The notes under the pieces: model-generated
What the model was told of the DNA's origin: nothing
Seen by the model: only the letters and a program-made list of their open reading frames with translations
The model's database searches: none
Translations under genes and position numbers: made by a program
Source of the DNA: an archaeon
Lineage (GTDB): Archaea; Iainarchaeota; Iainarchaeia; Iainarchaeales; CSSED10-239
Assembly: GCA_035390665.1 (NCBI GenBank)
Contig: DAOOUC010000003.1
Location: 10,742 to 74,741 of the forward strand
Direction: 5' to 3'
Length of the DNA: 64,000 bases
Shown: in pieces, positions 13,242-63,088 of the stretch
Layout of the letters: the number at the start of each line of letters is the position of its first letter
Position numbering within the stretch: the first letter of the stretch is position 1

Positions 13242-14651
13242 TTAATCAAGAGGAATAACGCATCTAAACCCAATCGAATCTGATTTATAACTTGGCGCCC
13301 ATCTTAAATTCATTGCAAAAACACCTGATGCATTTTCATCAAAATGTGTTCCACCCCTTACTATTGCGTGAACATTTGAATTATATGCAAGTCCTGAATT
13401 TGCTTGTCCTGGAGCAATATAAATTTTTCCAACACCTTGTTCTGAATCATAATCATTAAATGGTTTTATTTGACTATATGTTAAAGAACCCGATCTTGCC
13501 AAATTTGTAAATTCATACCAATCTCTTTCAAATAAATCTTCAAATCCTGGAGATCCATGCTGTACACCGCCACTATCATTTCCTTTATTATTTAAATCAG
13601 GATAATCCTCGCAGGTTCCATCACAACTTTCTATAATTGTTAAATCTACCCATTCTGCTAAATTTCCAGAGAAATCCCATATTTCTTCGCCATTAGATAA
13701 AACTAACTTAGCAAGTTCATTTCTATTATCTCCATAATCAATTAAACCCTTTAAATAGGATGCAGAACTATCTATTCCTACATTTCCTTTTTTTAATGAC
13801 CCTATTCCTGTTATTCCGCTATCCCAATTAGTTGAAACTTGTTCAATATTTCTTGCAATTGTCATCCATTCATCATTTGTTATTAAATGTGCACCAGAAT
13901 TCTCACAAATTTTTTTTACTGCACATAAATTTAAAATGGTTTCTGGAGGATCAGAAATTTTGTTTTCTAAAACCGCCATTGAACCATTAATTTCATTTCC
14001 TTCTTCACACATTCCATCAGAAATATATCCATCATTTATTCTAGCTTCATATTTTTGAACACAAAATTCAGAAGTATTATAATTTGGATTCCCTGGAACT
14101 GTAATATATCCATCTGGACAGCTTGTTGTTACTATTTCAGGATTATAACTTTCACAATATCTAAAATCAAAATCTTGTGAATTAACTTTTAATTCTATAT
14201 ATTTATTCTCAATGGTATATAAATTTAAAATAAAAGAACTTGATGGAAAACAAGCAATTGGAATTATAGTCAAATCTCCGCTATTTATTTCAATTTGTGG
14301 ATTTAATGCAATTCTTTTTGTAAGATATTTAGCATCCTGCAATTGATTATCAACTATAGTATATCCTTTAATAACTAAATCTTTTGTACTTGTATTTTGA
14401 ATTAAAACAGATCTATTTATTGCTTTTTTTACAAATATAAATCCTGTTATATCATCTTTTTCTGCTATTATATCTTTAGATGAAGACAATGTTGTATTTG
14501 TAAAATTTGTTCCCCAATTTATTATTATAGTAACTATAACTACACAAATTACTACAAGTAAAATAATTGCAATAATAGGAGATATTGCTTTTTCTTTTGT
14601 TCTCATATCTTTCTTTCTTTTTTTATTTAATTTATTTTTTTTTAAATTCAT
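13242..14651 (-). CDS. Pilin-like (class III signal peptide) surface protein with C-terminal formylglycine-generating-enzyme/SUMF1-like domain
   Basis: N-term basic stretch then KAISPIIAIILLVVICVVIV (archaeal prepilin-type signal). C-term HLITNDEWMTIARN, GNLAEWVDL, VRGGTHFDEN, SIGFRCVIPLD (FGE-sulfatase domain hallmarks). Confidence 0.6.
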   Translation of the reverse strand: MNLKKNKLNKKRKKDMRTKEKAISPIIAIILLVVICVVIVTIIINWGTNFTNTTLSSSKDIIAEKDDITGFIFVKKAINRSVLIQNTSTKDLVIKGYTIVDNQLQDAKYLTKRIALNPQIEINSGDLTIIPIACFPSSSFILNLYTIENKYIELKVNSQDFDFRYCESYNPEIVTTSCPDGYITVPGNPNYNTSEFCVQKYEARINDGYISDGMCEEGNEINGSMAVLENKISDPPETILNLCAVKKICENSGAHLITNDEWMTIARNIEQVSTNWDSGITGIGSLKKGNVGIDSSASYLKGLIDYGDNRNELAKLVLSNGEEIWDFSGNLAEWVDLTIIESCDGTCEDYPDLNNKGNDSGGVQHGSPGFEDLFERDWYEFTNLARSGSLTYSQIKPFNDYDSEQGVGKIYIAPGQANSGLAYNSNVHAIVRGGTHFDENASGVFAMNLRWAPSYKSDSIGFRCVIPLD

Positions 14652-36424: not shown

Positions 36425-37144
36425 ATGTTAAATAATTTATTAAATGGATTTAAAGTTTTTGTAAATAAAAAAACCCCACTTATTGTTTTATTATTTGCTT
36501 TTTCTTTCTTTGGACTCAATTATCTATCTAATGTTTTATTTGAAGAATTAGCAATAGGTATTAGTCTTAAAGAATATCCTTCTTTTCTTGTAAATTACTA
36601 TAGATTTGATTTATTTTGGTTTATCTTAGCAATGATTGGTTTATTCTTTTTATCTAATTTAGGAATATATTTAATTGCAAACAGTATTACAAAATCAAAT
36701 AAAAAAATAAAGACAGATGTCTTTAATTGTTTAACATATACTATTTTAACAGCTATCTTCTTTTTATTTATTGGATTAATAGGATATTTTTCTGTTTTGC
36801 CAAGTGGCTATTTTTCTATAATAATGTTAATTATTTTAGGAATAATCGCTCTTGTTGTTTCTTTTATAACTTTCTTTGGTATTTTGTTTCTTCCAGTATC
36901 AAATACTATCAAAGATAGTTTAAGAAATTCCTGGGGATTTATTAAAAAAAGATTTTGGGCAATTGTTTTAATGATAATTATTCTTGGAATAATAAATGTA
37001 GCAATTAGTTATGCATTTGAAATTATTTATACAAGAATAAAAGATTCAGAAATAATTAGTTTAATACTATTTATATTTACAAATACTATAATAACAATGT
37101 ATACTACAAGTGTTTTTTCTTCATTTATTAAGAAGAAAAAATAA
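36425..37144 (+). CDS. Polytopic membrane protein, hypothetical
   Basis: About 6 hydrophobic helices. Confidence 0.35.
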   Translation: MLNNLLNGFKVFVNKKTPLIVLLFAFSFFGLNYLSNVLFEELAIGISLKEYPSFLVNYYRFDLFWFILAMIGLFFLSNLGIYLIANSITKSNKKIKTDVFNCLTYTILTAIFFLFIGLIGYFSVLPSGYFSIIMLIILGIIALVVSFITFFGILFLPVSNTIKDSLRNSWGFIKKRFWAIVLMIIILGIINVAISYAFEIIYTRIKDSEIISLILFIFTNTIITMYTTSVFSSFIKKKK

Positions 37145-37264
37145 TTTTCTTTTTCTGAATTAGTCTGATGACAAGAGAAAAAAATTAAAAACACAAGAAA
37201 AGTTTTCACTTTTCTTTTTTAAGAAAAAAATCCGTTTTAAAGATTTTATTACGGATAAAGAAAA

Positions 37265-37280
37265 TAGGAAATTGTGCCAT
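37265..37280 (-). other. 3'-flanking half of the 23S rRNA processing stem (perfect 16-nt inverted repeat with 40371-40386)
   Basis: TAGGAAATTGTGCCAT here, ATGGCACAATTTCCTA at 40371-40386. The flanking TTTGAAC / GTGTTCAA may form the bulge-helix-bulge. Confidence 0.7.
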
Positions 37281-37299
37281 TTTGAACTGTCTTATTTCT

Positions 37300-40330
<3,031 letters not shown>

Positions 40331-40370
40331 CTTTTCATTTAATAGTCAAATTTTATAATAAACTTGAACA

Positions 40371-40386
40371 CATGGCACAATTTCCT
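40371..40386 (-). other. 5'-flanking half of the 23S processing stem
   Basis: See 37265-37280. Confidence 0.7.
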
Positions 40387-40532
40387 ACTCTCTCATCCCG
40401 TAAATGTAATAATTGCCAAAAATGCTAAAGTAACAAATTTGGACAATGACTTTTCTAAAAGATTTAAAACGGTCGAATTCCGATGCTAAAAGAACTTAGC
40501 CGGAATAACATAATTATGTAGCGACAGGTTTA

Positions 40533-40540
40533 TAAATAGA
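40533..40540 (-). promoter_or_regulatory. Candidate TATA box (TTTATAAA) for the 23S rRNA transcript, ~150 nt upstream of the processing stem
   Basis: Only strong palindromic TATA element in the 300-nt region upstream of the rRNA. Confidence 0.3.
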
Positions 40541-40687
40541 TCGCCATTTCTCTTCAGATTTTGCCCCGATTTTAAAATAAAGGCTAATAAGTACTTATTT
40601 TGATTTTAAGGTAATTAAACCTACATTTAAGCAAAATTGCGCAATTAAATGGCAAAAATGAAGAAACTGGGCCTGAAATAACCTCCA

Positions 40688-42484
40688 TTAATTAGGAGAA
40701 TATAATAATCCTTCAACTTTTGTTGGTGTTTCAATTACTGGATCTCCTGAATCAACACCTAATTTTCCTTTGTCATTGCTTCCCCAACAATAAAGTTCTT
40801 TTATTTTTCCACTCCCTGGATCAACAATTGAACAAGTAAAATTATATCCTAAAGAAGTGTTTGTTTGATTAATCATATTTTTCATTGATTCTGGGACATT
40901 ATGTGAAAGTTCATCTTTTGATTCTAGTCCTAATTGCCCAAGGTTATTACTTCCCCAGCAACTTTGTGTAAATCCTTCTTTCCCATAAATTGCACAACTG
41001 TGAGTTTTTCCAACATCTAACATTTGAATATTTGTTAAACCAACAACAGGGACAAATACTGGAATATTTAAATCTCCTGCTCCAGAACCAAGTTTCCCGA
41101 ATTCATTATTTCCTGCACAAAATGCAGAGTTATTTTCTTGAATAAATAAACAAGAATGGTTATCTCCAACAGATACTCTCATGGATATTGGAGCATTTAT
41201 TTGTACTGGACTTAGTTGTGAAATAGTATCTTCAGTTCCTAATTGCCCAAAAGTATTATCTCCCCAACACATAACCTTCCCATCGGTTAATACTGCACAA
41301 GCATGAGTAATTCCTATATCAACACTTATAACATCTGATAAAACAAAAGTTGGAGAATCTTTATGATCTTTATCTCCAACTCCTAATTGTCCATAAGAAT
41401 TATCACCCCAACAATATAATTTATTTGCAGAATCAATAGCACAAGAAGAGTTTCCTCCAACAGCTATACTAGTCACTTCTCCAAATTCAGGAATAACTAC
41501 TGGTATTAAACTCAAACTTTCTGGAGTTTCAAAACCAAGTTGTCCATAAGAATTATCACCCCAACACATTACATCTTTTGTGTCTAATAATGCACAAGAA
41601 TGAGAAAATCCAATACTTACTTGTATTGCAGTATTAATCTCTAAAACTAAAACTGGTTTATTACTTAAGTCATTAGTTCCGTTTCCAAGTTGGCCTTTTT
41701 CATTATTTCCCCAACAATTAATTTTACCCCCCTCTAACAAAACACAAGCATGATTTTCTCCTAAGGATAACTGTAATGGTTCATCTATTAAATAATTGTA
41801 AGTAATAATATCACTATCTATATAATTTTCTTTTATTGCAATTAATTTTAAGGTAGTATCTTCTTGAATTAATATTGCACTACCATTATATTGATTACTT
41901 GTTTCAGAATCGGGGTTTGTCCCATCTGTTGTATAATAAATCATATCATTTTCATTATCTGGAGTCAAAGTAATTTCTGTATTTAATGGAAGATATCCTG
42001 AATCTAAAGAGGCGCTAGGATTTCCGACTTTTGGCTTTGTTTGTGGAGCTTTTGTAATAGTAGGTAAAGAAAAATAATTAGTTGAATTGTTTAAAACTAT
42101 AGAAACCTTTGTTCCGGTCAATACTGTATCTATTGGAATAATAACCGATGCTCCTGTTATTATCTCAATTTCAGAATCCAAAGTTATTTCTTCTGTATTT
42201 CCTTCATTGTCTGAAATTGTGTATCCTGTTATTGTTACATTATTTGGCCCTAAATTTTTAATATTTAAATTACCTGTTTTTTCTATTGTTGCAGCTACAA
42301 AAGAATTTACTACAATTTGATTTTCTATATATTTCTTAGTATCTAAAATTCCATCTGTTTTGTCTAAACTTTTATTTGTAAATTGATTTCCCCAACTTAA
42401 AATTGCAACAGTAATTATTGTTGCAACAACAACTAATAATATTACTGTTATAAGCGTTGACACAGCTTTAAATTTATTTTTCAT
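40688..42484 (-). CDS. Pilin-like (class III signal peptide) surface protein with RCC1-repeat beta-propeller
   Basis: N-term KAVSTLITVILLVVVATIIT. At least six repeats of the type CWG(D/N)N..GQLG (RCC1 signature), e.g. CWGDNSYGQLG, CWGNNEKGQLG, CWGSNNLGQLG. Confidence 0.65.
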   Translation of the reverse strand: MKNKFKAVSTLITVILLVVVATIITVAILSWGNQFTNKSLDKTDGILDTKKYIENQIVVNSFVAATIEKTGNLNIKNLGPNNVTITGYTISDNEGNTEEITLDSEIEIITGASVIIPIDTVLTGTKVSIVLNNSTNYFSLPTITKAPQTKPKVGNPSASLDSGYLPLNTEITLTPDNENDMIYYTTDGTNPDSETSNQYNGSAILIQEDTTLKLIAIKENYIDSDIITYNYLIDEPLQLSLGENHACVLLEGGKINCWGNNEKGQLGNGTNDLSNKPVLVLEINTAIQVSIGFSHSCALLDTKDVMCWGDNSYGQLGFETPESLSLIPVVIPEFGEVTSIAVGGNSSCAIDSANKLYCWGDNSYGQLGVGDKDHKDSPTFVLSDVISVDIGITHACAVLTDGKVMCWGDNTFGQLGTEDTISQLSPVQINAPISMRVSVGDNHSCLFIQENNSAFCAGNNEFGKLGSGAGDLNIPVFVPVVGLTNIQMLDVGKTHSCAIYGKEGFTQSCWGSNNLGQLGLESKDELSHNVPESMKNMINQTNTSLGYNFTCSIVDPGSGKIKELYCWGSNDKGKLGVDSGDPVIETPTKVEGLLYSPN

Positions 42485-42608
42485 ATTATTTATATCCTCT
42501 CAAACTATTCTTAAAATTAGAATCAATATTTATAAATTACCAAATTATTTAAATAGTTATTCTTTCTTTAATATATATTAACTTATTTTATAATGATGTG
42601 AATTTTTT

Positions 42609-43811: not shown

Positions 43812-44399
43812 TTATTTAGCCACAGATCTTTTTGTTTTTGATATTATTGGTTTTATTTTCTTTTTTTCTATTTTTTGTCTTGGTTTTAATCCTACAAGTC
43901 TTTTTACCTTTCTTTGTAGTCTTTCTTTAGTATATGGTATTAATTTTTCTTTAAATTCTTGAATTATTTTATTTATATTTTCTATGTTTTTTCTTTGTAT
44001 ATTGTCATTAACATATCTATTCCAATCTTTATTAAATTCAGAAAGATTAGTTGAAAGAACTTTATTGTAAATACCAATTTCTCCGGTTTTAGTAGGAATA
44101 AAAGAATAAATATTCAAGTCTTTAGGATTAATAAAAAAATCCGCATCTCTTCCTATCGCATAATCTTTCTTAAGAACAAGAACTGGTGCTTTTTTTTCTT
44201 TAAAATTAGTTATTTTAACTTCTAATCTATTCTCTCTAATTGCTTCATAAAAATCTGCATAAAGCATATAATTACCTTTATATAATTCTAGATCTCTGTG
44301 TGTTGTGCCTTCTAGTTCTTTCCTTCTTATTCCTTCTTTTGATCTTCTTAATGAAGTTAATATTGATCCATTTAATAATCCACTTTTAATTTCTACCAT
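43812..44399 (-). CDS. Hypothetical basic protein, member of a 3-paralog family in this window
   Basis: EKKAPVLVLKKDYAIGRDADFFINPKDLNIYSFIPTKTGEIG. Tail ...SKTKRSVAK. Confidence 0.35.
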   Translation of the reverse strand: MVEIKSGLLNGSILTSLRRSKEGIRRKELEGTTHRDLELYKGNYMLYADFYEAIRENRLEVKITNFKEKKAPVLVLKKDYAIGRDADFFINPKDLNIYSFIPTKTGEIGIYNKVLSTNLSEFNKDWNRYVNDNIQRKNIENINKIIQEFKEKLIPYTKERLQRKVKRLVGLKPRQKIEKKKIKPIISKTKRSVAK

Positions 44400-44412
44400 T
44401 TTTTATCACGTT

Positions 44413-44871
44413 TTATTTTGCCATTGATCTTACTCTTCTTACCATTGGCCTTTTTGGTTTTATCTTGTGTTTTAATTCTCTGTGGGGTTTAAATTCTCTT
44501 GATTTAATTTTTTCTAGTTTTTTTGCTTTTAATCTTTCAATTATTTTACTTTTTGCATCTTCTGAAATTTTTTGAGAAATTTTATTTAATTCTTCTTTCA
44601 ATTTATCATTTTGAGTATTTTGTGTTTGATTAATATCTAAAACTTTTTCTACACTAATTATTTGTCCTAAAAAAGTTTTAACTTGATAAATAGAAAGATC
44701 ATTTAAAACAATAACTAATTTTCTATTAAAAGGATTTTTTTTAAGAACAAACACAGCTTTTTTTTCTCCATCTATTCTTAATACTCTTACAGCCCCTTCC
44801 TTATTTTTTAAAGCATTAAAAAAAGTCTCATAAATTTCTTGAGAGGCCATATTTTCAAACCTTAACGTCAT
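44413..44871 (-). CDS. Hypothetical basic protein, paralog of 43812-44399
   Basis: EKKAVFVLKKNPFNRKLVIVLNDLSIYQVKTFLGQI. Tail ...RRVRSMAK. Confidence 0.35.
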   Translation of the reverse strand: MTLRFENMASQEIYETFFNALKNKEGAVRVLRIDGEKKAVFVLKKNPFNRKLVIVLNDLSIYQVKTFLGQIISVEKVLDINQTQNTQNDKLKEELNKISQKISEDAKSKIIERLKAKKLEKIKSREFKPHRELKHKIKPKRPMVRRVRSMAK

Positions 44872-44882
44872 ATATTCTCTAT

Positions 44883-45575
44883 TTATTTCTTAAGACTTAA
44901 TCTTTCCCTTATTGTTTTTGGTCTAAAATCTCTTGTTTGTGGATCAATTGTATATCCTGGCATTGTTAAGTGTTTAACTTGGAATCCTAAAAACTCTCTT
45001 AAATTTTCTTCATATCTTATTTCTGCATTTTCTCCGGTTGGAATTATTTTTTCTGAAAGTGATCTAAATGATTGTTCTCCTGATTTTGAATCAAAATCGA
45101 TTTTCTTAAATTGACCAGTTATAAAATCTTGTGCCATTTTTGATAATCTAATTACTGTATACCCCATAACTTTGCCTGTTTTAATGTCTGTTACAGCAAT
45201 CGCAAAGTTAGTTAATCCATTTTTCTTATATGCATTTATTATACCCATTAAACTACTTCTTCTAGGTAGAGAATTTGGAATGTCTTTTGCTAATGGATCT
45301 CTTAAATTATCTTTAATTTGAACTAATGTTGAATTTCCAAATCTTTTTTTTGCATCTTCTTTTATTTTTTGATTAATTTTATCAATTTCTAAAAAATCTG
45401 TTTTAGATTTAAATCTATTAACTTCTTTTGAAACTTCATGCATTCTTTCCATCTTGCTTTTTGGAACTTTTAAGAATACGGCTGGATTATTATCTCCTAT
45501 TTTTCTTTTTTCTTTTACAATTTTTTCAATTCTTTTCTTAAATGTTACTGGTTTTGGTTTTGGCATTTTTATCAC
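44883..45575 (-). CDS. Hypothetical protein, first gene of the three-gene hypothetical operon downstream of leuS
   Basis: 230 aa ORF. Proline/lysine-rich N-terminus. Confidence 0.3.
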   Translation of the reverse strand: MIKMPKPKPVTFKKRIEKIVKEKRKIGDNNPAVFLKVPKSKMERMHEVSKEVNRFKSKTDFLEIDKINQKIKEDAKKRFGNSTLVQIKDNLRDPLAKDIPNSLPRRSSLMGIINAYKKNGLTNFAIAVTDIKTGKVMGYTVIRLSKMAQDFITGQFKKIDFDSKSGEQSFRSLSEKIIPTGENAEIRYEENLREFLGFQVKHLTMPGYTIDPQTRDFRPKTIRERLSLKK

Positions 45576-53235: not shown

Positions 53236-54966
53236 ATGTATTTAAAACTTAAAGAAAATAGTATAGACAAAGATTTATTTTATAACTGTTATAAAAATTT
53301 TGATAAAAAAGAGTTAGTTGTATTTAATTGTAAAAACTGTAATGATGCCCCTTGTATTTTAGCTTGCCCGCAAAAAGCTATATCTAAACAAAAAAATGGA
53401 ATTGTTTTTATTGATTCAAAAAAATGTATTGGCTGTAAAAGTTGTGTGTTTGCTTGTCCAGAAAATGCAATTATTTTTAAGAATAATAAAGCTACAAAAT
53501 GTGATTTATGTTTAAATAATTCATTTATCATGCCATGTTATTATGCTAATAGAGATGTATTAGAATTCTGTGAAAATTTAGATTCTGAAACACACACAAT
53601 AATCTTAGAAAAATATTTAGGATATATAATTACAAAGGAAAAAATAATCCAAACCCTATCGTTAGATGGAAAGGTTATAAAAACAGATAATAAAACAATG
53701 TATTTACTTAAATATCAACAGTTATCCAATGATGAAATAAAAGTTATTAATGAAATACTTGATTCTTATAAATTCAAAACCGAAGAATATAATCAAAATA
53801 TTAAATTAAATCTAGAAACAGAACTAATAGAATATTGTTATAAAAACAATATAGAATTAGATAAAGACCAATTCTCTTATTTAATTGATCTTGCCATAAA
53901 TAATTTATTTGAATTCGGGCCATTAACACATTTACTTAATGATTTTAATCTGGAAGAAATTGCAATAATTGGGATAAATCTCCCTGTATTTGTATATCAT
54001 AGAATTTATGGCTGGCTAGAAACTAATTTAAAATATATTTCTGAACAAAAATTAAAGGATATAATAAATAAATTAGGTTGGAATACAAACAAATATATTA
54101 CATTGAAGAATCCAATAATGGATGCAACTTTAAAAGATCACACTCGACTTAATGCTATAATTTCTCCAATAACAGAAAGTGTTTGTTTAACCATTAGAAA
54201 ATTTTCAGAAAGACCAATATCTATTTTTGATTTATTAAAATATAAAACTATCTCATCTAAAGCTCTTGCTTTTCTTAAATTAGCATTTTTAACTGACGCT
54301 AATATTTTTGTTGTTGGTAATACTGGTTCTGGTAAAACTACTACTTTAAATGCATTATTGGATTTTATACCAAAAGAGGAGCGCCTTATTCTTGTTGAAG
54401 AAGTTCAGGAAATTAATGTTACACATCCACACAAGGTGTCAATTTTAGTAAATAAAGAATTGGGAATTACTATGGAAAATCTAATAATAAATACACTTAG
54501 AATGAGACCAGATAAGGTCGTGATTGGAGAAGTAAGATCTAGAGAAGAATCAAATGCATTAATTGATTCTTTACTTTGTGGTCAAGCTAAAGGGACATAT
54601 ACAACTTTTCATGCACAATCTGCAAAAGATGCAACCTTGAGGTTTCTTTCTTATGGGATTTTAGAAAATGATATTACTGCAATAGATCTAATCATAACTC
54701 AAAGAAGATATAACGAATATATTAATGACAGCAATTTTAAGGATAAAAGAAAAATATTTGAAATCTCTGAAATATTTTATGAGAATAATAAACTAAAAAT
54801 CAATAAAATATTTGAATATTGCCCAGATAAAAAAGAATTATTATTTAAAAACTACCCAAATAAACTAATGCAAAAATTTCAACTTGCTTTTGGGATAAAA
54901 ACCAAAAAACAATTATTGGAATTAATAGATATAGAAGAAAAGAGAATTCTATCTAAAAAAATTTGA
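53236..54966 (+). CDS. Type II/IV secretion-family ATPase (TadA/CpaF/VirB11-like) with N-terminal di-cluster [4Fe-4S] ferredoxin domain
   Basis: N-term CKNCNDAPCILACP and CIGCKSCVFACP. Walker A VVGNTGSGKTTTLNALL. Asp/His boxes RMRPDKVVIGEVRSREE...GQAKGTYTTFHAQSAKDA. Confidence 0.75.
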   Translation: MYLKLKENSIDKDLFYNCYKNFDKKELVVFNCKNCNDAPCILACPQKAISKQKNGIVFIDSKKCIGCKSCVFACPENAIIFKNNKATKCDLCLNNSFIMPCYYANRDVLEFCENLDSETHTIILEKYLGYIITKEKIIQTLSLDGKVIKTDNKTMYLLKYQQLSNDEIKVINEILDSYKFKTEEYNQNIKLNLETELIEYCYKNNIELDKDQFSYLIDLAINNLFEFGPLTHLLNDFNLEEIAIIGINLPVFVYHRIYGWLETNLKYISEQKLKDIINKLGWNTNKYITLKNPIMDATLKDHTRLNAIISPITESVCLTIRKFSERPISIFDLLKYKTISSKALAFLKLAFLTDANIFVVGNTGSGKTTTLNALLDFIPKEERLILVEEVQEINVTHPHKVSILVNKELGITMENLIINTLRMRPDKVVIGEVRSREESNALIDSLLCGQAKGTYTTFHAQSAKDATLRFLSYGILENDITAIDLIITQRRYNEYINDSNFKDKRKIFEISEIFYENNKLKINKIFEYCPDKKELLFKNYPNKLMQKFQLAFGIKTKKQLLELIDIEEKRILSKKI

Positions 54967-54972
54967 ATAATT

Positions 54973-55686
54973 ATGTTGTCTAATAACATTAAAATGCTTT
55001 TGATTTTAGGGTTAGTAATAACTATATTATTTTTATTATTAAATTTCATATATCCTTTAGATTTAATATTCTTAATTTATATTGAATTCATTTTTGTTGT
55101 TATTTATTATTCGGTTTGGTTTTTTATAAAACGGATAAAAGAACAAGATGAGAAAACAAGATTGTTAAGAGAACTTCCTTTTTTTCTTAATAGTCTTGCT
55201 AGTGATCTAGATAAAAATATACCTTTAAAATTATCTTTAGAAAATCAAGCTAAAAGAAATACTTTGATTGGAACAAAAGTCAGTTTAGCACTGTTTCTTG
55301 TTTCAAATAAAGGATATACTTTACAATCAGCATTAGAAAATATATCTAAAAATAATATTGAATTAGAGCGAGTAATTTATCAAATAATAGACATTTTACA
55401 TAGTGGGACTAAAAATAAATCAGAAGTTTTTAGAATATTAGCTAATAATTTTCTAGAGCAACAAAGCACGGCCACGAAAAATTATTCCACCAAATTAAGT
55501 TTCTTATCTTTAGTCTTTGTTGTTGTGTCCGCAATTGTCCCCGCTTTATTTTTAATGTTTTTCTTAGTTGGCAGTAATTTTTTTGAGATTGAAATTTCGG
55601 TGGTTGGCATTATTTTAATAACAATAATTTTATTTCCAATCATTGATATGTTCATATTATTATTTATGAGAGCAAATCTTGTTTAG
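54973..55686 (+). CDS. TadB/TadC-like (T2SS-F domain) pilus platform membrane protein, first of a split pair
   Basis: N-terminal TMs, cytoplasmic helical domain RELPFFLNSLASDLDKNIPLKLSLE..., two C-terminal TMs. Confidence 0.55.
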   Translation: MLSNNIKMLLILGLVITILFLLLNFIYPLDLIFLIYIEFIFVVIYYSVWFFIKRIKEQDEKTRLLRELPFFLNSLASDLDKNIPLKLSLENQAKRNTLIGTKVSLALFLVSNKGYTLQSALENISKNNIELERVIYQIIDILHSGTKNKSEVFRILANNFLEQQSTATKNYSTKLSFLSLVFVVVSAIVPALFLMFFLVGSNFFEIEISVVGIILITIILFPIIDMFILLFMRANLV

Positions 55687-55698
55687 GGGCAATAAACA

Positions 55699-56517
55699 AT
55701 GAAAAAATATTTAATTATTATTTTTAATATTTTATCTATCTTTGTTTTTATTATCTATAAAATTAATATTTTCCTTTCTTTAATTTTTTTAATTGTTGGT
55801 AATATTATAATTATTTTATTAAATAAATTATATTGTAAATATATTATAGATCTTGAGCGAAAAAAAATAGAATATGCACTTTTAGATGAAATTTTAGTAT
55901 TATCAAGTCAACCAAGAATTAATGACCTTAATCAATTACTTACAAAATTGTCTCATTCCAATAACAAACTAATATCTAAAGAATTTAGAATAATTCTTCA
56001 TAAAATTGAAGAAGGACATAGTGTTAAAGATGTACTTTTTGTATTTTCAAAAAAATATAACTCTGAAATATTAGATCGCTTTCTTGATTTATTATATGGA
56101 TCTATTACCACTGGTACTACATCTGTTGTTGATTATCGTTCTTTTGCCAATAATTTTTTAAAGTCTAAGCAATTAATTGACGAAAGAAATTCAGTTCTTT
56201 TAATTCAAAAATATACTATTATTTTTGCAGGGTGTTTTATTGTACCAGGAATATTAGGAATTGTAATTTCTTTAGTTAACAAATTAATTGGAAACTTAGA
56301 TTTTTCATTAATTGATGCCTCAACCAAATTAGCAAGTAATACAATGTTATTTTCTACTTGTTATTATTGTTCTATTATTTATATTATAGAATATGTATTC
56401 ATTTCTTCAATTTATTTAAGCATGTTAGAATCAGATATTAAAAAAACTATAATTTATATTATTTTCTTAATGCCAATTTCTATAATTATATTTTTTTTAA
56501 GTTCTATTCTTATTTAA
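55699..56517 (+). CDS. TadC-like (T2SS-F domain) pilus platform membrane protein, second of the pair
   Basis: Same architecture: ALLDEILVLSSQPR...FRIILHKIEEGHSVKDVL... then TMs. Confidence 0.55.
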   Translation: MKKYLIIIFNILSIFVFIIYKINIFLSLIFLIVGNIIIILLNKLYCKYIIDLERKKIEYALLDEILVLSSQPRINDLNQLLTKLSHSNNKLISKEFRIILHKIEEGHSVKDVLFVFSKKYNSEILDRFLDLLYGSITTGTTSVVDYRSFANNFLKSKQLIDERNSVLLIQKYTIIFAGCFIVPGILGIVISLVNKLIGNLDFSLIDASTKLASNTMLFSTCYYCSIIYIIEYVFISSIYLSMLESDIKKTIIYIIFLMPISIIIFFLSSILI

Positions 56518-59212: not shown

Positions 59213-60862
59213 TCATTCAGGCAAAGGATCTTGAGTATTATTTCTTAGATAAGGATATGTTATTCCTTCTTCTATTCCCCAGATATCTGTAAAATTCCAA
59301 TCAGTAAACGTATCTTGTGTTTTCATTTCTGTGGTTGTTTTTGGAACTCCTCTCCCATCATTATCTGATTGCCCAGAAGTATTTGTATCATATATAATAT
59401 AATATATTCGAGAAATATCTCCGCCGCCCAATAAGCCCCCATAATTTTCATTACCGATAACTGATCCTGCAGAATAAGAACTAAAAATAATTCCTTCAGG
59501 TAATCGTATAGGAGGAGGTGTTAACTCCCCATTATACCCCACAAGTCCACCTACATAATTATTACCACTAACATTACAAAAGGAATAAGAATCAGTTATT
59601 CCCCCCCTATTATATCCAACTAACCCACCAATATCATTTCCTTCAGAACTAACAATTTCACCAATAGAATAACTATTGATAATATCCCCCCTCTTATATC
59701 CAACTATCCCACCAACATCGCTCTCTGAACTAATTATTTTAATATTAGAATAACTATTTTCTATATTTCCATAACCTAATCCAACTAATCCACCACAATC
59801 ACTTCCACAATAAATATTCCCATTAAAACTACTGGAATTTATATCTCCACCATCTGAATTAAATCCCGCTCTATTATTTATTCCTATTAATCCTCCAATA
59901 GCAGAATTACCTGATATAGTTCCAGAAGAATGTACATTAGAAAGTATTGAAAACCACATAAAGTTTCCAACAATACTACCTACATTATTTGACCCTATAA
60001 TATTTACATCAGTCAAAATTAAATTTTTTATTTCAATCATTTTACTTTCTGTATATTTAATATATCCAAATAAACCAATATTATCGTTCTCTGGTAAATT
60101 AATATATAAATTACTTATTGTGTAATTATTTCCATTAAAACTTCCTTCAAAACCACTATCATCAGAACCTATTGGTTCAAAGCCCTCTCCTTCATTGTAT
60201 GGACTAACACCAAGATCTAGGTTTTTTCCAAGTTTATAGTGCTTGCCAAGCCCATTTCTAACATTATTAAGATCATCAACACTACAGATTACAAATGGAT
60301 CTTCTTCAATTTTTCCACTTCCATTATCTGTTATTCCTAAACAAACAGGATCTGGTATTTCTGTATTATTAAAACAAGAATTGGATTGATAATTACTATT
60401 GTTAATTGGAACAGTAATATATTTCCCATCACTAGTTATTAAATTTACTTTAAAAGATTCATCTGGATTACAAATAATTGGAACAGAAACCATTGATCCA
60501 GAATTTAAATTGACGGGGTCATCTAAAGTTATTGGCTTATTTAATATTTCGCTATCTTGTGGTGCAACAATTTCATATTTTGTAATTATTACATCTTTAT
60601 CGGATAGATTTTTTACAATATAGCTTTCTGGTTGAGGATTACTAGTATATATATACCCTGTTAATGTTGGATCTTCTTTATAAATTTCTTGAGATTTATC
60701 TAATGAATTACTAGTGGTTATTAATCCCCAAGAAAGAATAGAACCTACAATTATAACTGCAATTACAAGTAAAAGAATTACAGAAATGATTGGAGAAAAC
60801 GATTTCTTATTTAAATCTCTCAAATCTTTTATTCGTTTAGATTTAAATTTATGTTTTCTCAA
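59213..60862 (-). CDS. Pilin-like (class III signal peptide) surface protein with GLUG-motif beta-helix repeats
   Basis: N-term KKSFSPIISVILLLVIAVIIV. Repeats AIGGLIGINNR, CGGLVGLGYGNI, DVGGIVGYKRGDI, DIGGLVGYNRGGI, NYVGGLVGYNGEL, ENYGGLLGGGD. Confidence 0.6.
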   Translation of the reverse strand: MRKHKFKSKRIKDLRDLNKKSFSPIISVILLLVIAVIIVGSILSWGLITTSNSLDKSQEIYKEDPTLTGYIYTSNPQPESYIVKNLSDKDVIITKYEIVAPQDSEILNKPITLDDPVNLNSGSMVSVPIICNPDESFKVNLITSDGKYITVPINNSNYQSNSCFNNTEIPDPVCLGITDNGSGKIEEDPFVICSVDDLNNVRNGLGKHYKLGKNLDLGVSPYNEGEGFEPIGSDDSGFEGSFNGNNYTISNLYINLPENDNIGLFGYIKYTESKMIEIKNLILTDVNIIGSNNVGSIVGNFMWFSILSNVHSSGTISGNSAIGGLIGINNRAGFNSDGGDINSSSFNGNIYCGSDCGGLVGLGYGNIENSYSNIKIISSESDVGGIVGYKRGDIINSYSIGEIVSSEGNDIGGLVGYNRGGITDSYSFCNVSGNNYVGGLVGYNGELTPPPIRLPEGIIFSSYSAGSVIGNENYGGLLGGGDISRIYYIIYDTNTSGQSDNDGRGVPKTTTEMKTQDTFTDWNFTDIWGIEEGITYPYLRNNTQDPLPE

Positions 60863-60868
60863 ATAATT

Positions 60869-63088
60869 TCACTTCCCTACTTTTTTTTTAAGATCTTTCT
60901 TTGGCTTTTCTATTTTTGGTTTTATTTCATTATTCTTTTTTTGTTCTGAAATTACGATGTTTTCTTTTGTGTGTCTTCTATACTCTTTTTCTTCTATTTC
61001 TCTTAATTCTTTTAAATAACTTTTTTTCATGTCTTCATATGTAAATTTACTAATTTGCCCGTTTGTTAATTTATGTTCTAGTTCTAATATATTTCTTTGT
61101 ATTTTAGATTTCTTGTTGTTGTGTTTTTCTAATTCTATAACAATTGAAATTATCATTAAGAATAATCCCCCAATAATTACATACATTATCGTATTGTTCT
61201 TAGAAGAATCTTCCTTTTTATAAACAATTACATTTTGTTTATCTTCTACTTTTGAGATAATTTCATCAGAATCATTTATATCTATGATTATTTGATTATT
61301 GCCTTCTGGAACAACTACATCAATTATTCCTGCATCATTATAATACGAATGTACAATTGATTCAATAATATACAATTCTTTAGAAATATTAACAATAGAA
61401 TTTGCTGTTTTTATGTTTGTCTCTGCTTTTGTTGTATTTTTTGATTTATAGAATTGATATTGCTTATAGTGATACAAGGAATGATCAAAAAACATTTTTG
61501 ACCAAACGTTTGTATTTAATTTGATTTCTTGTGGTGATCTTAATTCAGATAATTTGTTGTATTTATCTAAGAATACATTCTCATCGAACGACTCTTTAGA
61601 ATTTTCTTTTCTAGAGATTAATACTGCTTTTGCAGATGCTGAATCATATAAAGAAGTAACATACCATCCCATTTCAAAATCTTTTTTTGCAGCAGTAATT
61701 CTTCTTTGAATATCTTCGTCTGATAATGCCTCTTCATCAGATAATACTAATTCATTTTCTACATCAACAATATACTTTTGGGCTAAATCCTTAAATTGTT
61801 CACTTTCTACAAAATTTGGACCATTATTTGTTATTCCAATATCTAAGAAATCATTAGCAATTTCAATCCATGCTAATGCATAACTATAATTCATTATCTT
61901 ATCTATTCCTGTACTGGAGGTATATTTATTTGATTTTATATCTGCAATTTTATTTTTTGCCCAAACAATTCTTTGTTTAGCTCCAATACACCATTCTAAT
62001 TTATCTAAAGAACAAAGCTTAGATCTATTCTCAGTTAATGCAATTTTTTTCTCTATTTCTTCTATTCTTAAATTATAAATTGTAGAATCTGTAGATATAA
62101 TGGATGGATTTTTTACAATTTCATCTATTGTTATTAAATAGATTTTTGCTAAAAATGCATCATTTGCAGAAGTGTATAGGTAATTATTTTTAGAATTTTC
62201 TTCTGCAGACACAATTGCTTCTTTAGAATAATCAACTAATGATAAAAGTCCTTGAACAATAGAACTATCTTTAATTGTACTTGAGTTAATATTATTTTCT
62301 GTTCTTAATAAAATACTTTTTGCATCTATTACATATTTATCAACTACTGCTCTCATAGGCACTAATGCCTCAGAATATTGTATTTTTTCTGGATAATATT
62401 CTGCTTCTTTTTTTTCTACTATGCTATTAATATCTATTTCATCTATATTCATTTTTGAATATTCTAAAATATCGTCAATTGTCTCAACTTCAACTACTTT
62501 AAGTCCCCAATTAGAATAAGCATAATCAACAATGTCAACGACTTGTGATTGTCCAGATTCAGTTGTAATTGCTTGTTTTCTTGTGCCTATTGGAATCATA
62601 AATAATTTAATTCCAACATCTGCTGCTTTTTTTGCTTTTGCTGAAATTCCCCCAACATCTCCAACATACCCGTCAGAAGTAATTGTTCCGGTAATACTAA
62701 CTTTGCCTGATAAATCAGTATCATTTAACATAGAAACAATAAGTAAAGCCATTGCAGCTCCTGCAGAAGGCCCATCAATACTACTTGCATTTGATTGAAT
62801 TTCAAAAAAATAATCATATTTACCTTTAGCTTGTGATGTTATTTTTTCTGCAGCATTAACTGCATTTCTTTCTGATTCTTGTGTTAAAGAACCAACTTGA
62901 GAATTAACATTAGAAAAAATCTTTCCTGTTCCTGGTTTTATTTCAATAATAAGATTAGCATCCATTCCAATATTAGAAGAAGTTACAGCAAAAATTTTCA
63001 TTTCTTCTTTAGGGATATATGCAAATATATTTGCAGATATAAGAAGTATAAACATTAATATTAATAATCTTTTATTCATTTTTTTCAC
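60869..63088 (-). CDS. Secreted, C-terminally membrane-anchored S16 (Lon-like) peptidase-domain protein without AAA+ module
   Basis: Signal peptide LLILMFILLISANIFA. DGPSAGAAMALLIVSMLND...ITGTITSDGYVGDVGGISAKAKKAADVGIKLFMIPIG (Lon catalytic Ser/Lys region). TM MYVIIGGLFLMIISIVI near the C-terminus. Confidence 0.55.
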   Translation of the reverse strand: MKKMNKRLLILMFILLISANIFAYIPKEEMKIFAVTSSNIGMDANLIIEIKPGTGKIFSNVNSQVGSLTQESERNAVNAAEKITSQAKGKYDYFFEIQSNASSIDGPSAGAAMALLIVSMLNDTDLSGKVSITGTITSDGYVGDVGGISAKAKKAADVGIKLFMIPIGTRKQAITTESGQSQVVDIVDYAYSNWGLKVVEVETIDDILEYSKMNIDEIDINSIVEKKEAEYYPEKIQYSEALVPMRAVVDKYVIDAKSILLRTENNINSSTIKDSSIVQGLLSLVDYSKEAIVSAEENSKNNYLYTSANDAFLAKIYLITIDEIVKNPSIISTDSTIYNLRIEEIEKKIALTENRSKLCSLDKLEWCIGAKQRIVWAKNKIADIKSNKYTSSTGIDKIMNYSYALAWIEIANDFLDIGITNNGPNFVESEQFKDLAQKYIVDVENELVLSDEEALSDEDIQRRITAAKKDFEMGWYVTSLYDSASAKAVLISRKENSKESFDENVFLDKYNKLSELRSPQEIKLNTNVWSKMFFDHSLYHYKQYQFYKSKNTTKAETNIKTANSIVNISKELYIIESIVHSYYNDAGIIDVVVPEGNNQIIIDINDSDEIISKVEDKQNVIVYKKEDSSKNNTIMYVIIGGLFLMIISIVIELEKHNNKKSKIQRNILELEHKLTNGQISKFTYEDMKKSYLKELREIEEKEYRRHTKENIVISEQKKNNEIKPKIEKPKKDLKKKVGK

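Follow-up and report, generated by a model that had tools for sequence, protein, structure and literature searches.

How the DPANN archaea recognize their partners and attach to them is largely unknown, and most of their lineages, including the Iainarchaeota, are uncultivated. Here we analyze a gene for a candidate attachment protein, found in a 64-kb stretch of DNA (hereafter, the window; G+C content of about 27%) that is part of contig DAOOUC010000003.1 of the Iainarchaeota assembly GCA_035390665.1. An initial annotation had proposed, for positions 40688-42484, a pilin-like N-terminus fused to a propeller of RCC1 repeats, located directly upstream of the promoter region of the 23S rRNA. These coordinates proved exact, the gene being a minus-strand open reading frame (ORF) of 598 amino acids (aa), and the position was correct as well, as Rfam recognizes a large-subunit rRNA gene on the same strand, its 5' end lying 373 nt past the stop codon of the 598-aa gene (Table 1). 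The protein consists of an N-terminal module of the pilin type, a single Ig-like domain, which we read as a stalk or a spacer, and which is absent from the initial annotation but found by Pfam, and a C-terminal seven-bladed RCC1-like propeller. On its other side, the gene is flanked by a divergently oriented gene for a YchF/Ygr210-like GTPase, and the elements in the region between the two may, judging from their sequence, serve as promoters. The best GTDB matches of this GTPase, at 86, 81, and 69% identity, are in genomes labelled "archaeon," "Candidatus ainarchaeum sp.," and "Candidatus Iainarchaeum archaeon," and NCBI assigns Iainarchaeum to the Iainarchaeota in the kingdom Nanobdellati, which makes the source a DPANN archaeon.

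Table 1. Coordinates of the gene in question, its parts and related features of the 64-kb window (positions are those of the window)
Feature	Position	Strand	Basis
Whole gene, 598-aa modular pilin-like protein	40688..42484	-	ATG start; ORF call, Pfam domains, full-length syntenic orthologues P0002 and P0003
Predicted class III signal leader, aa 1-7 (MKNKFKA)	42464..42484	-	Predicted prepilin-peptidase site A7/V8 (KA/VS)
Hydrophobic N-terminal helix, aa 8-31 (VSTLITVILLVVVATIITVAILSW)	42392..42463	-	AF2 helix, family-wide conservation
Complete pilin-type module, aa 1-150 (helix and seven-strand beta-sandwich head)	42035..42484	-	Family profile, PDB profile matches, AF2, Foldseek
CHB_HEX_C_1/Fn3_assoc Ig-like domain, aa 162-231	41792..42001	-	Pfam, E 3.8e-13 and 3.2e-13
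Predicted seven-bladed RCC1-like beta-propeller, aa 236-590, two Cys per blade	40715..41779	-	Pfam, AF2, Foldseek
Strain-variable island (second half of pilin head, stalk, propeller, ~115 nt 3' untranslated)	40573..42160		Window versus L002
Intergenic region between pilin-like gene and divergent YchF/Ygr210-like GTPase gene	42485..42608		AT-rich TATA-like boxes; GAGG ~11 nt before ATG
Archaeal 23S rRNA gene	37334..40314	-	Rfam RF02540, 2469 bits, model positions 1-2987
Conserved leader/promoter region of 23S rRNA	40315..40607	-	L004 8665..12081 aligned to window 40607..37196, 98%
Paralogue, pilin-type module with FGE-sulfatase-like (C-type-lectin-fold) C-terminus	13242..14651	-	Local HMM, E 4e-52
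Paralogue, pilin-type module with GLUG repeats	59213..60862	-	Glug, E 3.7e-12
Type IV filament assembly ATPase (FlaI/PilB/BasE-like)	53236..54966	+	T2SSE, E 8e-36
Two adjacent T2SSF-like platform genes (TadC/FlaJ/PilC)	54973..55686, 55699..56517	+	PF00482

The RCC1-Like Propeller

The CxGxNxxG(Q/K)LG motif, for which at least six copies had been proposed, is present seven times (at aa 257, 307, 358, 406, 456, 509, and 566), six of the copies reading CWG and one reading CAG. The two Pfam models initially suggested for a check both recognize the repeats at scores far above the curated cut-offs, RCC1 (PF00415) in seven stretches with an E-value of 7.4e-58 (193.4 bits versus a cut-off of 21.7) and RCC1_2 (PF13540) with an E-value of 7.9e-52 (172.3 bits), and WD40_RLD (PF25390) matches with an E-value of 5.1e-73 (246.9 bits versus a cut-off of 150). 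Structure prediction for the full-length protein (AF2, alignment of 57 sequences) produces a model in which aa 236-590 mostly have a predicted local distance difference test (pLDDT) score above 90 and form 28 strands, arranged as seven blades of four in a closed fold. When compared to the PDB using Foldseek, the predicted propeller retrieves UVR8 first (4dnw_A; E 5.9e-33, TM(target) of 0.88, root-mean-square deviation (rmsd) of 1.9 Å, 378 columns), followed by RPGR, HERC2, HERC1, and RCC1, so the seven blades proposed at the outset are what computation predicts. The propeller contains 14 cysteines, two per blade, found at the same positions in the consensus of the bacterial homologues, and from the sequence they would be compatible with a disulfide in each blade of a protein located outside the cell. 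A recent origin of the blades through duplication was considered but rejected, since the DNA repeats between the blades are only 64-70% identical.

One could also envision a secreted protein of an inhibitor- or an enzyme-like nature, such as a BLIP-II-type inhibitor of proteases or beta-lactamases, or a factor targeting cell walls, with a function in antagonism and not in adhesion. RCC1 repeats are reportedly part of giant proteins in predatory bacteria, and BLIP-II itself (3qi0_A) is found among the Foldseek matches. However, it only ranks 50th (E 1.5e-15), a match much weaker than the generic RCC1-like ones, and a catalytic domain was not detected by Pfam. The fusion to a pilin carrier, the variable length of the stalk, and the diversity of alleles, all described below, also fit binding or recognition better, making a secreted inhibitor highly improbable.

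The N-Terminal Module

The protein starts with MKNKFKA/VSTLITVILLVVVATIITVAILSW, where the slash, here and below, denotes the predicted processing site. The KAVS and the stretch of about 20 hydrophobic residues noted initially are thus present, the stretch extending to about 24 residues, and the 22 residues that follow the predicted site have a mean Kyte-Doolittle value of 2.86. The segment of aa 8-31 would be the part that either enters the filament core or anchors the protein in the membrane. The KAVS is a site of the same type as the RAVS and DAVS processing sites in the adhesion pilins PilA1-6 of Haloferax volcanii, of which PilA4-6 possess RAVS (PMC4371748).

As direct hidden Markov model (HMM) scans provide no pilin match for this protein, its membership must be argued via a family profile. 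A search with the profile of the module, exhaustive over 1.84 billion representatives, uncovered a family of at least 329 clusters at E<=1e-3, with 151 clusters at E<=1e-10, while a word-indexed search with the N-terminal module alone returned 2 proteins. The consensus of the family reads KK[AS]ISPLIATILLIVVAVIL..WGK.FT, most of the family-wide conservation being confined to the hydrophobic N-terminal segment, and the class III motif [KRN][GAS]/[ILVFM][SETA]x is in register in 127 of 137 members. The Pfam model for archaeal pilins (Pilin_N, PF07790) recognizes only 11 of the 101 members scanned (E<=1e-3), and many of the short members have been named "flagellin-like protein" by JGI. Stand-alone homologues of approximately 150-165 aa are abundant in related archaea and, from their sequences, could be major pilins.

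The relationship to known archaeal filament subunits becomes apparent at the level of the family. When the family profile (A6) is compared with the PDB, 8fk7_A is matched with an E-value of 9.7e-8 over profile positions 4-118, thus covering both the helix and the head, and 8rey_M is matched with an E-value of 7e-5 over positions 9-124. Further matches are to 9myg_A, 8fj5_A, PilA2 of Natrinema (8gi2_A), and Iho670 (5kyh_A). Predicted structures agree with this assignment. The AF2 model of the module alone (alignment of 37 sequences, pLDDT of 78.8) consists of a helix at aa 7-43, with pLDDT values of 95-97, and seven strands at aa 57-139, and Foldseek identifies as its best match 8fk7_A (E 2.3e-5), the subunit of the flagellar-like type IV pilus of Pyrobaculum calidifontis, with the Methanospirillum archaellin 5tfy ranking second and the Aap filament of Sulfolobus acidocaldarius, 8q30, ranking seventh. 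Of the comparison with archaeal pilins that the initial annotation called for, the part made through the family profile was successful, whereas the protein itself matches neither Pilin_N nor TIGR02537. The N-terminus is, in any case, more than a signal anchor, as it opens a module of about 150 aa, helix and head, that matches solved subunits of archaeal type IV pili. Given such an N-terminus, and given that the repeats are those of RCC1, the initial interpretation is supported.

The alternative that has to be considered here is that of an ordinary surface protein, anchored or secreted via Sec, with an RCC1 propeller that functions without type IV filament machinery. The lack of a Pilin_N or a TIGR02537 match would be in line with this, as would be the distance of 11 kb to the assembly genes and the fact that the propeller by itself is most closely related to bacterial RCC1 proteins, in the thousands (30-40% identity, covering 57-61% of the query), with N-termini of other kinds. 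However, the homology to pilus subunits continues past the helix and into the head (alignment positions 4-118), the model of the helix and sandwich retrieves archaeal pilus and archaellum subunits before anything else, a K[AGS]/[ILV]S[PT] motif is maintained in a fixed register in approximately 130 family members, and two paralogues in the window score near the thresholds of Pilin_N and TIGR02537. We therefore consider an ordinary surface protein quite unlikely.

Two cysteines, one in a CxP motif of the head and another at the end of the module, are conserved in most members of the family, including both paralogues in the window, and they probably form a disulfide. Neither is present in the protein in question (around aa 120 and aa 150) or in its closest relatives (P0121 and the P0147 type).

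A Family of Carriers with Different Cargo

The homologous module of about 150 aa is shared by three minus-strand ORFs in the window, followed by an FGE-sulfatase-like domain in one, by RCC1 in the gene in question, and by GLUG repeats in the third. The gene had been described as the second of three pilin-adhesin-type fusions within 64 kb and as part of a diversified repertoire, and both statements stand, the latter not only for the three paralogues but also for the wider family, with its lectin, GLUG, RCC1, Kelch, NHL, and PKD cargo. The paralogues are recognized by the established pilin models only marginally, at 17.1 and 14.6 bits for PF07790 (cut-off of 25.2), the FGE-sulfatase-like one matching Pilin_N with an E-value of 0.01, and the GLUG one reaching 19.7 bits for TIGR02537 (cut-off of 20). 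The FGE-sulfatase match (E 1.2e-4), which, like the Pilin_N match of the same protein, is below the curated cut-off, though only just, involves the last 45 or so positions of the profile. The GLUG paralogue is preceded on the same strand by a gene (60869-63088) that ends 6 nt before it, and the two are therefore probably in one operon. This gene encodes a 739-aa protein that combines a signal-peptide-like N-terminus with a Lon_C/S16 protease domain (E 1.5e-12), in which an ATPase domain was not detected, and which weakly matches a SepM-type pheromone-processing protease.

The proteins of the family range from 78 to 1271 aa, and all of them have the module at the N-terminus. A Pfam scan of 101 members revealed, as the commonest cargo, the ConA-like lectin Laminin_G_3 (21 members), followed by GLUG (15), RCC1 (10), the DUF5122 propeller (6), Lcl_C (5), and PKD (5), and Kelch, NHL, and DUF285 domains are also found. 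RCC1 motifs follow the module in at least eight additional clusters. These differ in how many stalk domains they have, as in a Pfam scan of four RCC1 clusters no CHB_HEX_C copy was found in P0152 or P0175 and two copies were found in P0212. As so few members of the family are recognized by the Pfam pilin model, the module profile could help to compile candidate adhesins from DPANN genomes and to associate types of alleles with co-occurring hosts.

Variation Among Strains

Two full-length syntenic orthologues of the gene are available, P0002 at locus L002 and P0003 at locus L003. Conservation in related genomes, which the initial annotation suggested checking, is limited: among GTDB representatives, a gene with the pilin module is located next to the GTPase gene in only one of the 41 loci in which the GTPase was found (L009), so the locus must be considered lineage-restricted.

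Comparison of the window with L002 over sliding stretches of 100 nt reveals an island of about 1.6 kb with nucleotide identities of 52-89%, in a background of 97-100% on both sides. The right-hand boundary of the island is the conserved leader of the 23S rRNA. To the left, the GTPase proteins are 100% identical (synonymous divergence, dS, of 0.016), and the first 45 codons of the pilin-like gene are 99% identical in DNA. Beyond codon 45, nucleotide identity decreases to 91% in the head, 85% in the stalk, and 62% in the propeller (48% at the protein level), with a dS of 0.65 and a ratio of nonsynonymous to synonymous divergence (dN/dS) of 0.76 for the latter. In contrast to the propellers, the pilin modules are 95% identical between strains, with a dN/dS of 0.12-0.18. 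Pairwise identities among the three propeller alleles are 48, 48, and 60%; the framework motifs HxCA and CWGxNxxGQLG are maintained, and the segments between them vary. As dS is elevated along with dN, the simplest reading of these sequences would be the replacement of the propeller by a divergent allele through recombination, with hypermutation in situ being less likely.

One specific source of hypervariability was considered and rejected. The C-terminus of the FGE-sulfatase-like paralogue prompted a search for a diversity-generating retroelement (DGR), as the variable regions of DGRs usually sit in C-terminal domains of the C-type-lectin fold. No pair of a template and a variable repeat exists in the window, in which direct repeats of 50 nt or longer are at most 77% identical, none pairing the 3' end of a gene with a template, and no reverse transcriptase was recognized among the subset of window ORFs scanned. 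The divergence of the alleles affects all codon positions, whereas a DGR would be expected to leave an adenine-specific pattern.

The slot between the GTPase and the 23S rRNA genes is occupied in different ways in different relatives. One stalk domain and a propeller are present in the window and L002, two stalk domains and a propeller in L003, and three stalk domains, followed by the beginning of a propeller interrupted by the contig end, in L009, whose GTPase is 86% identical. In L004-L007, the slot contains a 164-aa gene encoding the module alone (P0121), and in L008 and L010 the 23S rRNA gene is directly next to the GTPase gene, with no pilin-like gene present. The module thus acts as a conserved carrier, with cargo that is exchangeable and cleanly deletable and with zero to three copies of the stalk domain. 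The module-only form, found on 7 contigs, remains under purifying selection in its module (dN/dS of 0.12).

Some further details of these alleles are worth recording. The module-only form (L004 8001-8725, and likewise in L005-L007) is a clean internal deletion, of about 1.43 kb, from an L003-like allele, with an overlap of about 10 nt at the junction, and with the last 110 or so nt of the RCC1 ORF left untranslated after a new stop codon. A 132-aa protein, P0122, encoded on a 10-kb ENA contig and ending prematurely after ...KPKVEILAPR, is identical to the L003/P0003 type in its first half and to the window type in its second half, and this apparent mosaic suggests recombination within the carrier module itself. 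A second, milder divergent patch (43862-44361; 81-93% nucleotide identity to L002) is located inside the gene 43812..44399 (minus strand), which encodes a Lys-rich protein of 195 aa without a Pfam family, beside the GTPase gene of 100% identity.

Assembly Genes

A potential source of a filament is encoded in the window on the plus strand, as an assembly ATPase and two platform proteins. The ATPase matches the NCBIfam models of FlaI (E 3e-59) and of the bindosome ATPase BasE (E 3.5e-30), both below the curated cut-offs, and the platform proteins match PF00482 with E-values of 1.3e-3 (19.1 bits, below the cut-off) and 1.4e-5 (25.5 bits, with a cut-off of 25.2). A combination of an ATPase with two platform genes is a hallmark of the archaeal type IV filament "system 1," known from methanogens, Thermococcales, and DPANN, and a layout with two platform genes has also been reported for some DPANN 4A loci (bioRxiv 10.64898/2026.04.22.720090). 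The ATPase has an additional N-terminal domain (aa ~24-96) of the 4Fe-4S dicluster, ferredoxin-like type (Fer4 families), fused to the T2SSE core; in the Aap system of Sulfolobales, an Fe-S cluster protein is encoded by a separate accessory gene, whose function is unknown (bioRxiv 10.64898/2026.04.22.720090).

The BasE match points to yet another possibility, a display similar to that of the bindosome, in which the protein would be processed at its class III site and placed into a short, membrane-proximal pseudopilus or an envelope array, with the propeller acting as a surface receptor or as a protein binding substrates or glycans. The class III signal and the machinery would serve this reading as well as they serve a filament, and a gene for a major pilin is absent from the window. 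There is also precedent for such an arrangement. The bindosome subunits of Sulfolobus, large functional domains following class III signal peptides and thus similar to the protein discussed here, behave in this way, their display depending on a dedicated PilB/PilC-like pair, and 4364 candidate class III binding proteins have been reported across archaea (PMC4371748; bioRxiv 10.64898/2026.04.22.720090). However, these subunits are ABC substrate-binding proteins that have gained a signal peptide only and possess no pilin head, while the propeller here is the cargo of a complete module whose head is homologous to filament subunits. No ABC-transporter partner is encoded next to the gene, and candidates for major pilins, the short stand-alone homologues, are abundant in related archaea. 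Overall, we consider a bindosome-like display unlikely, though less so than an ordinary surface protein.

Comparison with Known Systems

The closest analogue by description is PilX2 of the ultrasmall, host-dependent bacterial episymbiont Nanosynbacter lyticus TM7x (Saccharibacteria), which belongs to the T4P-2 system as a minor pilin and bears a heptabladed RCC1 propeller. Efficient binding to the host reportedly depends on PilX2, the extrusion of filaments does not, and PilX2 has been proposed to be the filament adhesin (PMC11623550). The layout, a pilin with a seven-bladed RCC1 propeller, is the same. However, PilX2 is bacterial and has a non-canonical signal with no predicted PilD site, while the archaeal protein has a module of the Pilin_N/archaellin type, a K-A/V-S class III site, and a beta-sandwich head. 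Another example is presented by the bacterial modular pilins, in which a small N-terminal pilin carrier is connected through a linker to a bulky effector, the effectors being diverse, and PilB (vWA) and PilC (ConA-like lectin) of Streptococcus sanguinis being the experimentally studied cases (PMC8179133). As this bulk cannot fit in the filament body, the effectors are predicted to be presented at the tip (PMC8179133). The protein described here is built according to the same plan, with the module at 1-150, CHB_HEX_C at 162-231, and RCC1 at 236-590, and its carrier is also found with other cargo as well as alone, in the 164-aa P0121. The similarity extends to the cargo, since the commonest one in the archaeal family is the ConA-like Laminin_G_3, as in PilC of S. 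sanguinis. The survey of the bacterial modular pilins was defined by the bacterial N-methylation motif IPR012902 and does not mention archaea (PMC8179133), whereas the carrier here is an archaeal pilin with a class III signal, and replacement of effector alleles at the strain level is outside that description.

The solved subunits of archaeal pili and archaella (8fk7, 8rey, 9myg, 8fj5, 8gi2, 5kyh) share with this protein the class III-type N-terminus, the hydrophobic helix, and the beta-sandwich head, but they are of 135-300 aa and have no extra domains, while here approximately 450 aa of stalk and propeller are added, which are unlikely to fit in the body of a filament. Seven-bladed propellers at the tips of type IV pili are also known from the PilY1/PilC adhesins of Pseudomonas and Neisseria (PMC8179133, PMC11623550). 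PilY1, however, is not a pilin, docks via minor pilins, and has a propeller of the IPR008707 family, in contrast to the RCC1-type propeller with a pilin module of its own described here, for which the Pfam scan produced no match to the PilY1/PilC family. Predicted adhesins or minor pilins have been noted in earlier surveys (PMC4858521). In an incomplete library of the literature, we found no report linking RCC1 to archaeal or DPANN pilins.

A Proposed Modular Archaeal Pilin with a Variable Binding Part

Based on the evidence above, we propose that the product of the gene is a modular archaeal type IV pilin of a DPANN (Iainarchaeota-like) archaeon, presenting a variable binding module. We assign to this reading a probability of roughly 0.6. 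The N-terminal module is placed in the archaeal type IV pilin superfamily by the paralogues, the family, the solved structures, the predicted fold, and the type of the processing site. In this scenario, the basic leader of 7 residues would be removed by a class III signal peptidase at KA/VS, and the hydrophobic helix and the beta-sandwich head (aa 8-150) would insert into a type IV filament, for whose assembly the ATPase and the two platform proteins encoded 11 kb away would be responsible. The Ig-like stalk and the 355-aa propeller would be displayed at the tip of the filament or on a short pseudopilus, the bulk of this C-terminal part making such a location probable, and the ligand bound by the propeller would be that of a host cell or a surface. 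The source archaeon is tiny and probably host-dependent. The strong divergence of the propeller among strains that are nearly identical elsewhere makes it a good candidate for mediating the recognition of a partner or a surface.

A number of observations weigh against the proposed pilin. The gene lies apart from the assembly genes, at a distance of 11 kb. Neither a Peptidase_A24 match nor a GxGD motif, and thus no class III signal peptidase, was found among the ORFs of the window with multiple transmembrane segments that were scanned (MFS, CitMHS, MscS, VTT, DUF63, the two T2SSF-like proteins, and a 239-aa protein with 6 segments), and a gene for a short major pilin was likewise not found in the 64 kb. 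No PF07790 or TIGR02537 match was obtained in Pfam and NCBIfam scans even when the N-terminal 155 aa were isolated and E-values up to 10 were accepted, and residue +3 is Thr, while the consensus of the family has Pro. The Foldseek alignment to 8fk7 has a modest TM score, 0.46-0.51, with an rmsd of 6.8 Å, and in the full-length model the module and the stalk are of low confidence (pLDDT below 50 for aa 31-168). As to the variable island, its dN/dS of 0.54-0.76 is below 1, and the high dS, which points to divergent alleles having been imported, does not directly attest to positive selection.

With the pilin carrier, the protein joins the modular type IV pilins, a known class, as an archaeal (DPANN) member, not surprising in kind. 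The present data add to this class a cassette of hypervariable cargo and a family profile by which many fusions of pilin and cargo are uncovered. It provides a concrete handle on partner recognition in DPANN, as a testable candidate, a propeller borne by a pilin and sharply different between otherwise identical strains, with a layout that, in the bacterial ultrasmall episymbiont TM7x, is that of a host-binding pilin with experimental support. One may go further and speculate that this DPANN lineage uses the pilin carrier as a plug-in platform, with binding modules being swapped through recombination, and with the propeller allele either setting the host or the surface to which the cell attaches or allowing the cell to escape viruses that use the pilus tip. 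The arrangement would then be of an independent origin, convergent with PilX2. We offer this extension as tentative and rather doubtful, although somewhat more plausible than the bindosome-like display.

Other Features of the Window

The 23S rRNA gene is a solitary one, as Rfam recognizes no 16S or 5S rRNA genes anywhere in the window. The approximately 290 nt upstream of it (40315..40607) are conserved between relatives to the same degree as the rRNA itself, at 98%. In the protein in question, N-glycosylation sequons are not enriched, their number, 12, not being significantly different from 8.8 +/- 2.6 in shuffled sequences. On the GTPase side of the locus, three consecutive basic ORFs (43812..45575) are without a family in the precomputed table. 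On the other side, past the 23S rRNA gene, the plus strand encodes a 239-aa protein that has about six transmembrane segments and no Pfam or NCBIfam family (36425..37144). A gene for a protein of equal length is located beside the pilin-like gene in L004-L007, but an alignment identifies the two as unrelated, the equal length being coincidental, and their interpretation as paralogues was rejected. The membrane protein of 36425..37144 itself is maintained in the same position, closely following the 23S rRNA gene, in the window as well as in L004 and L008.

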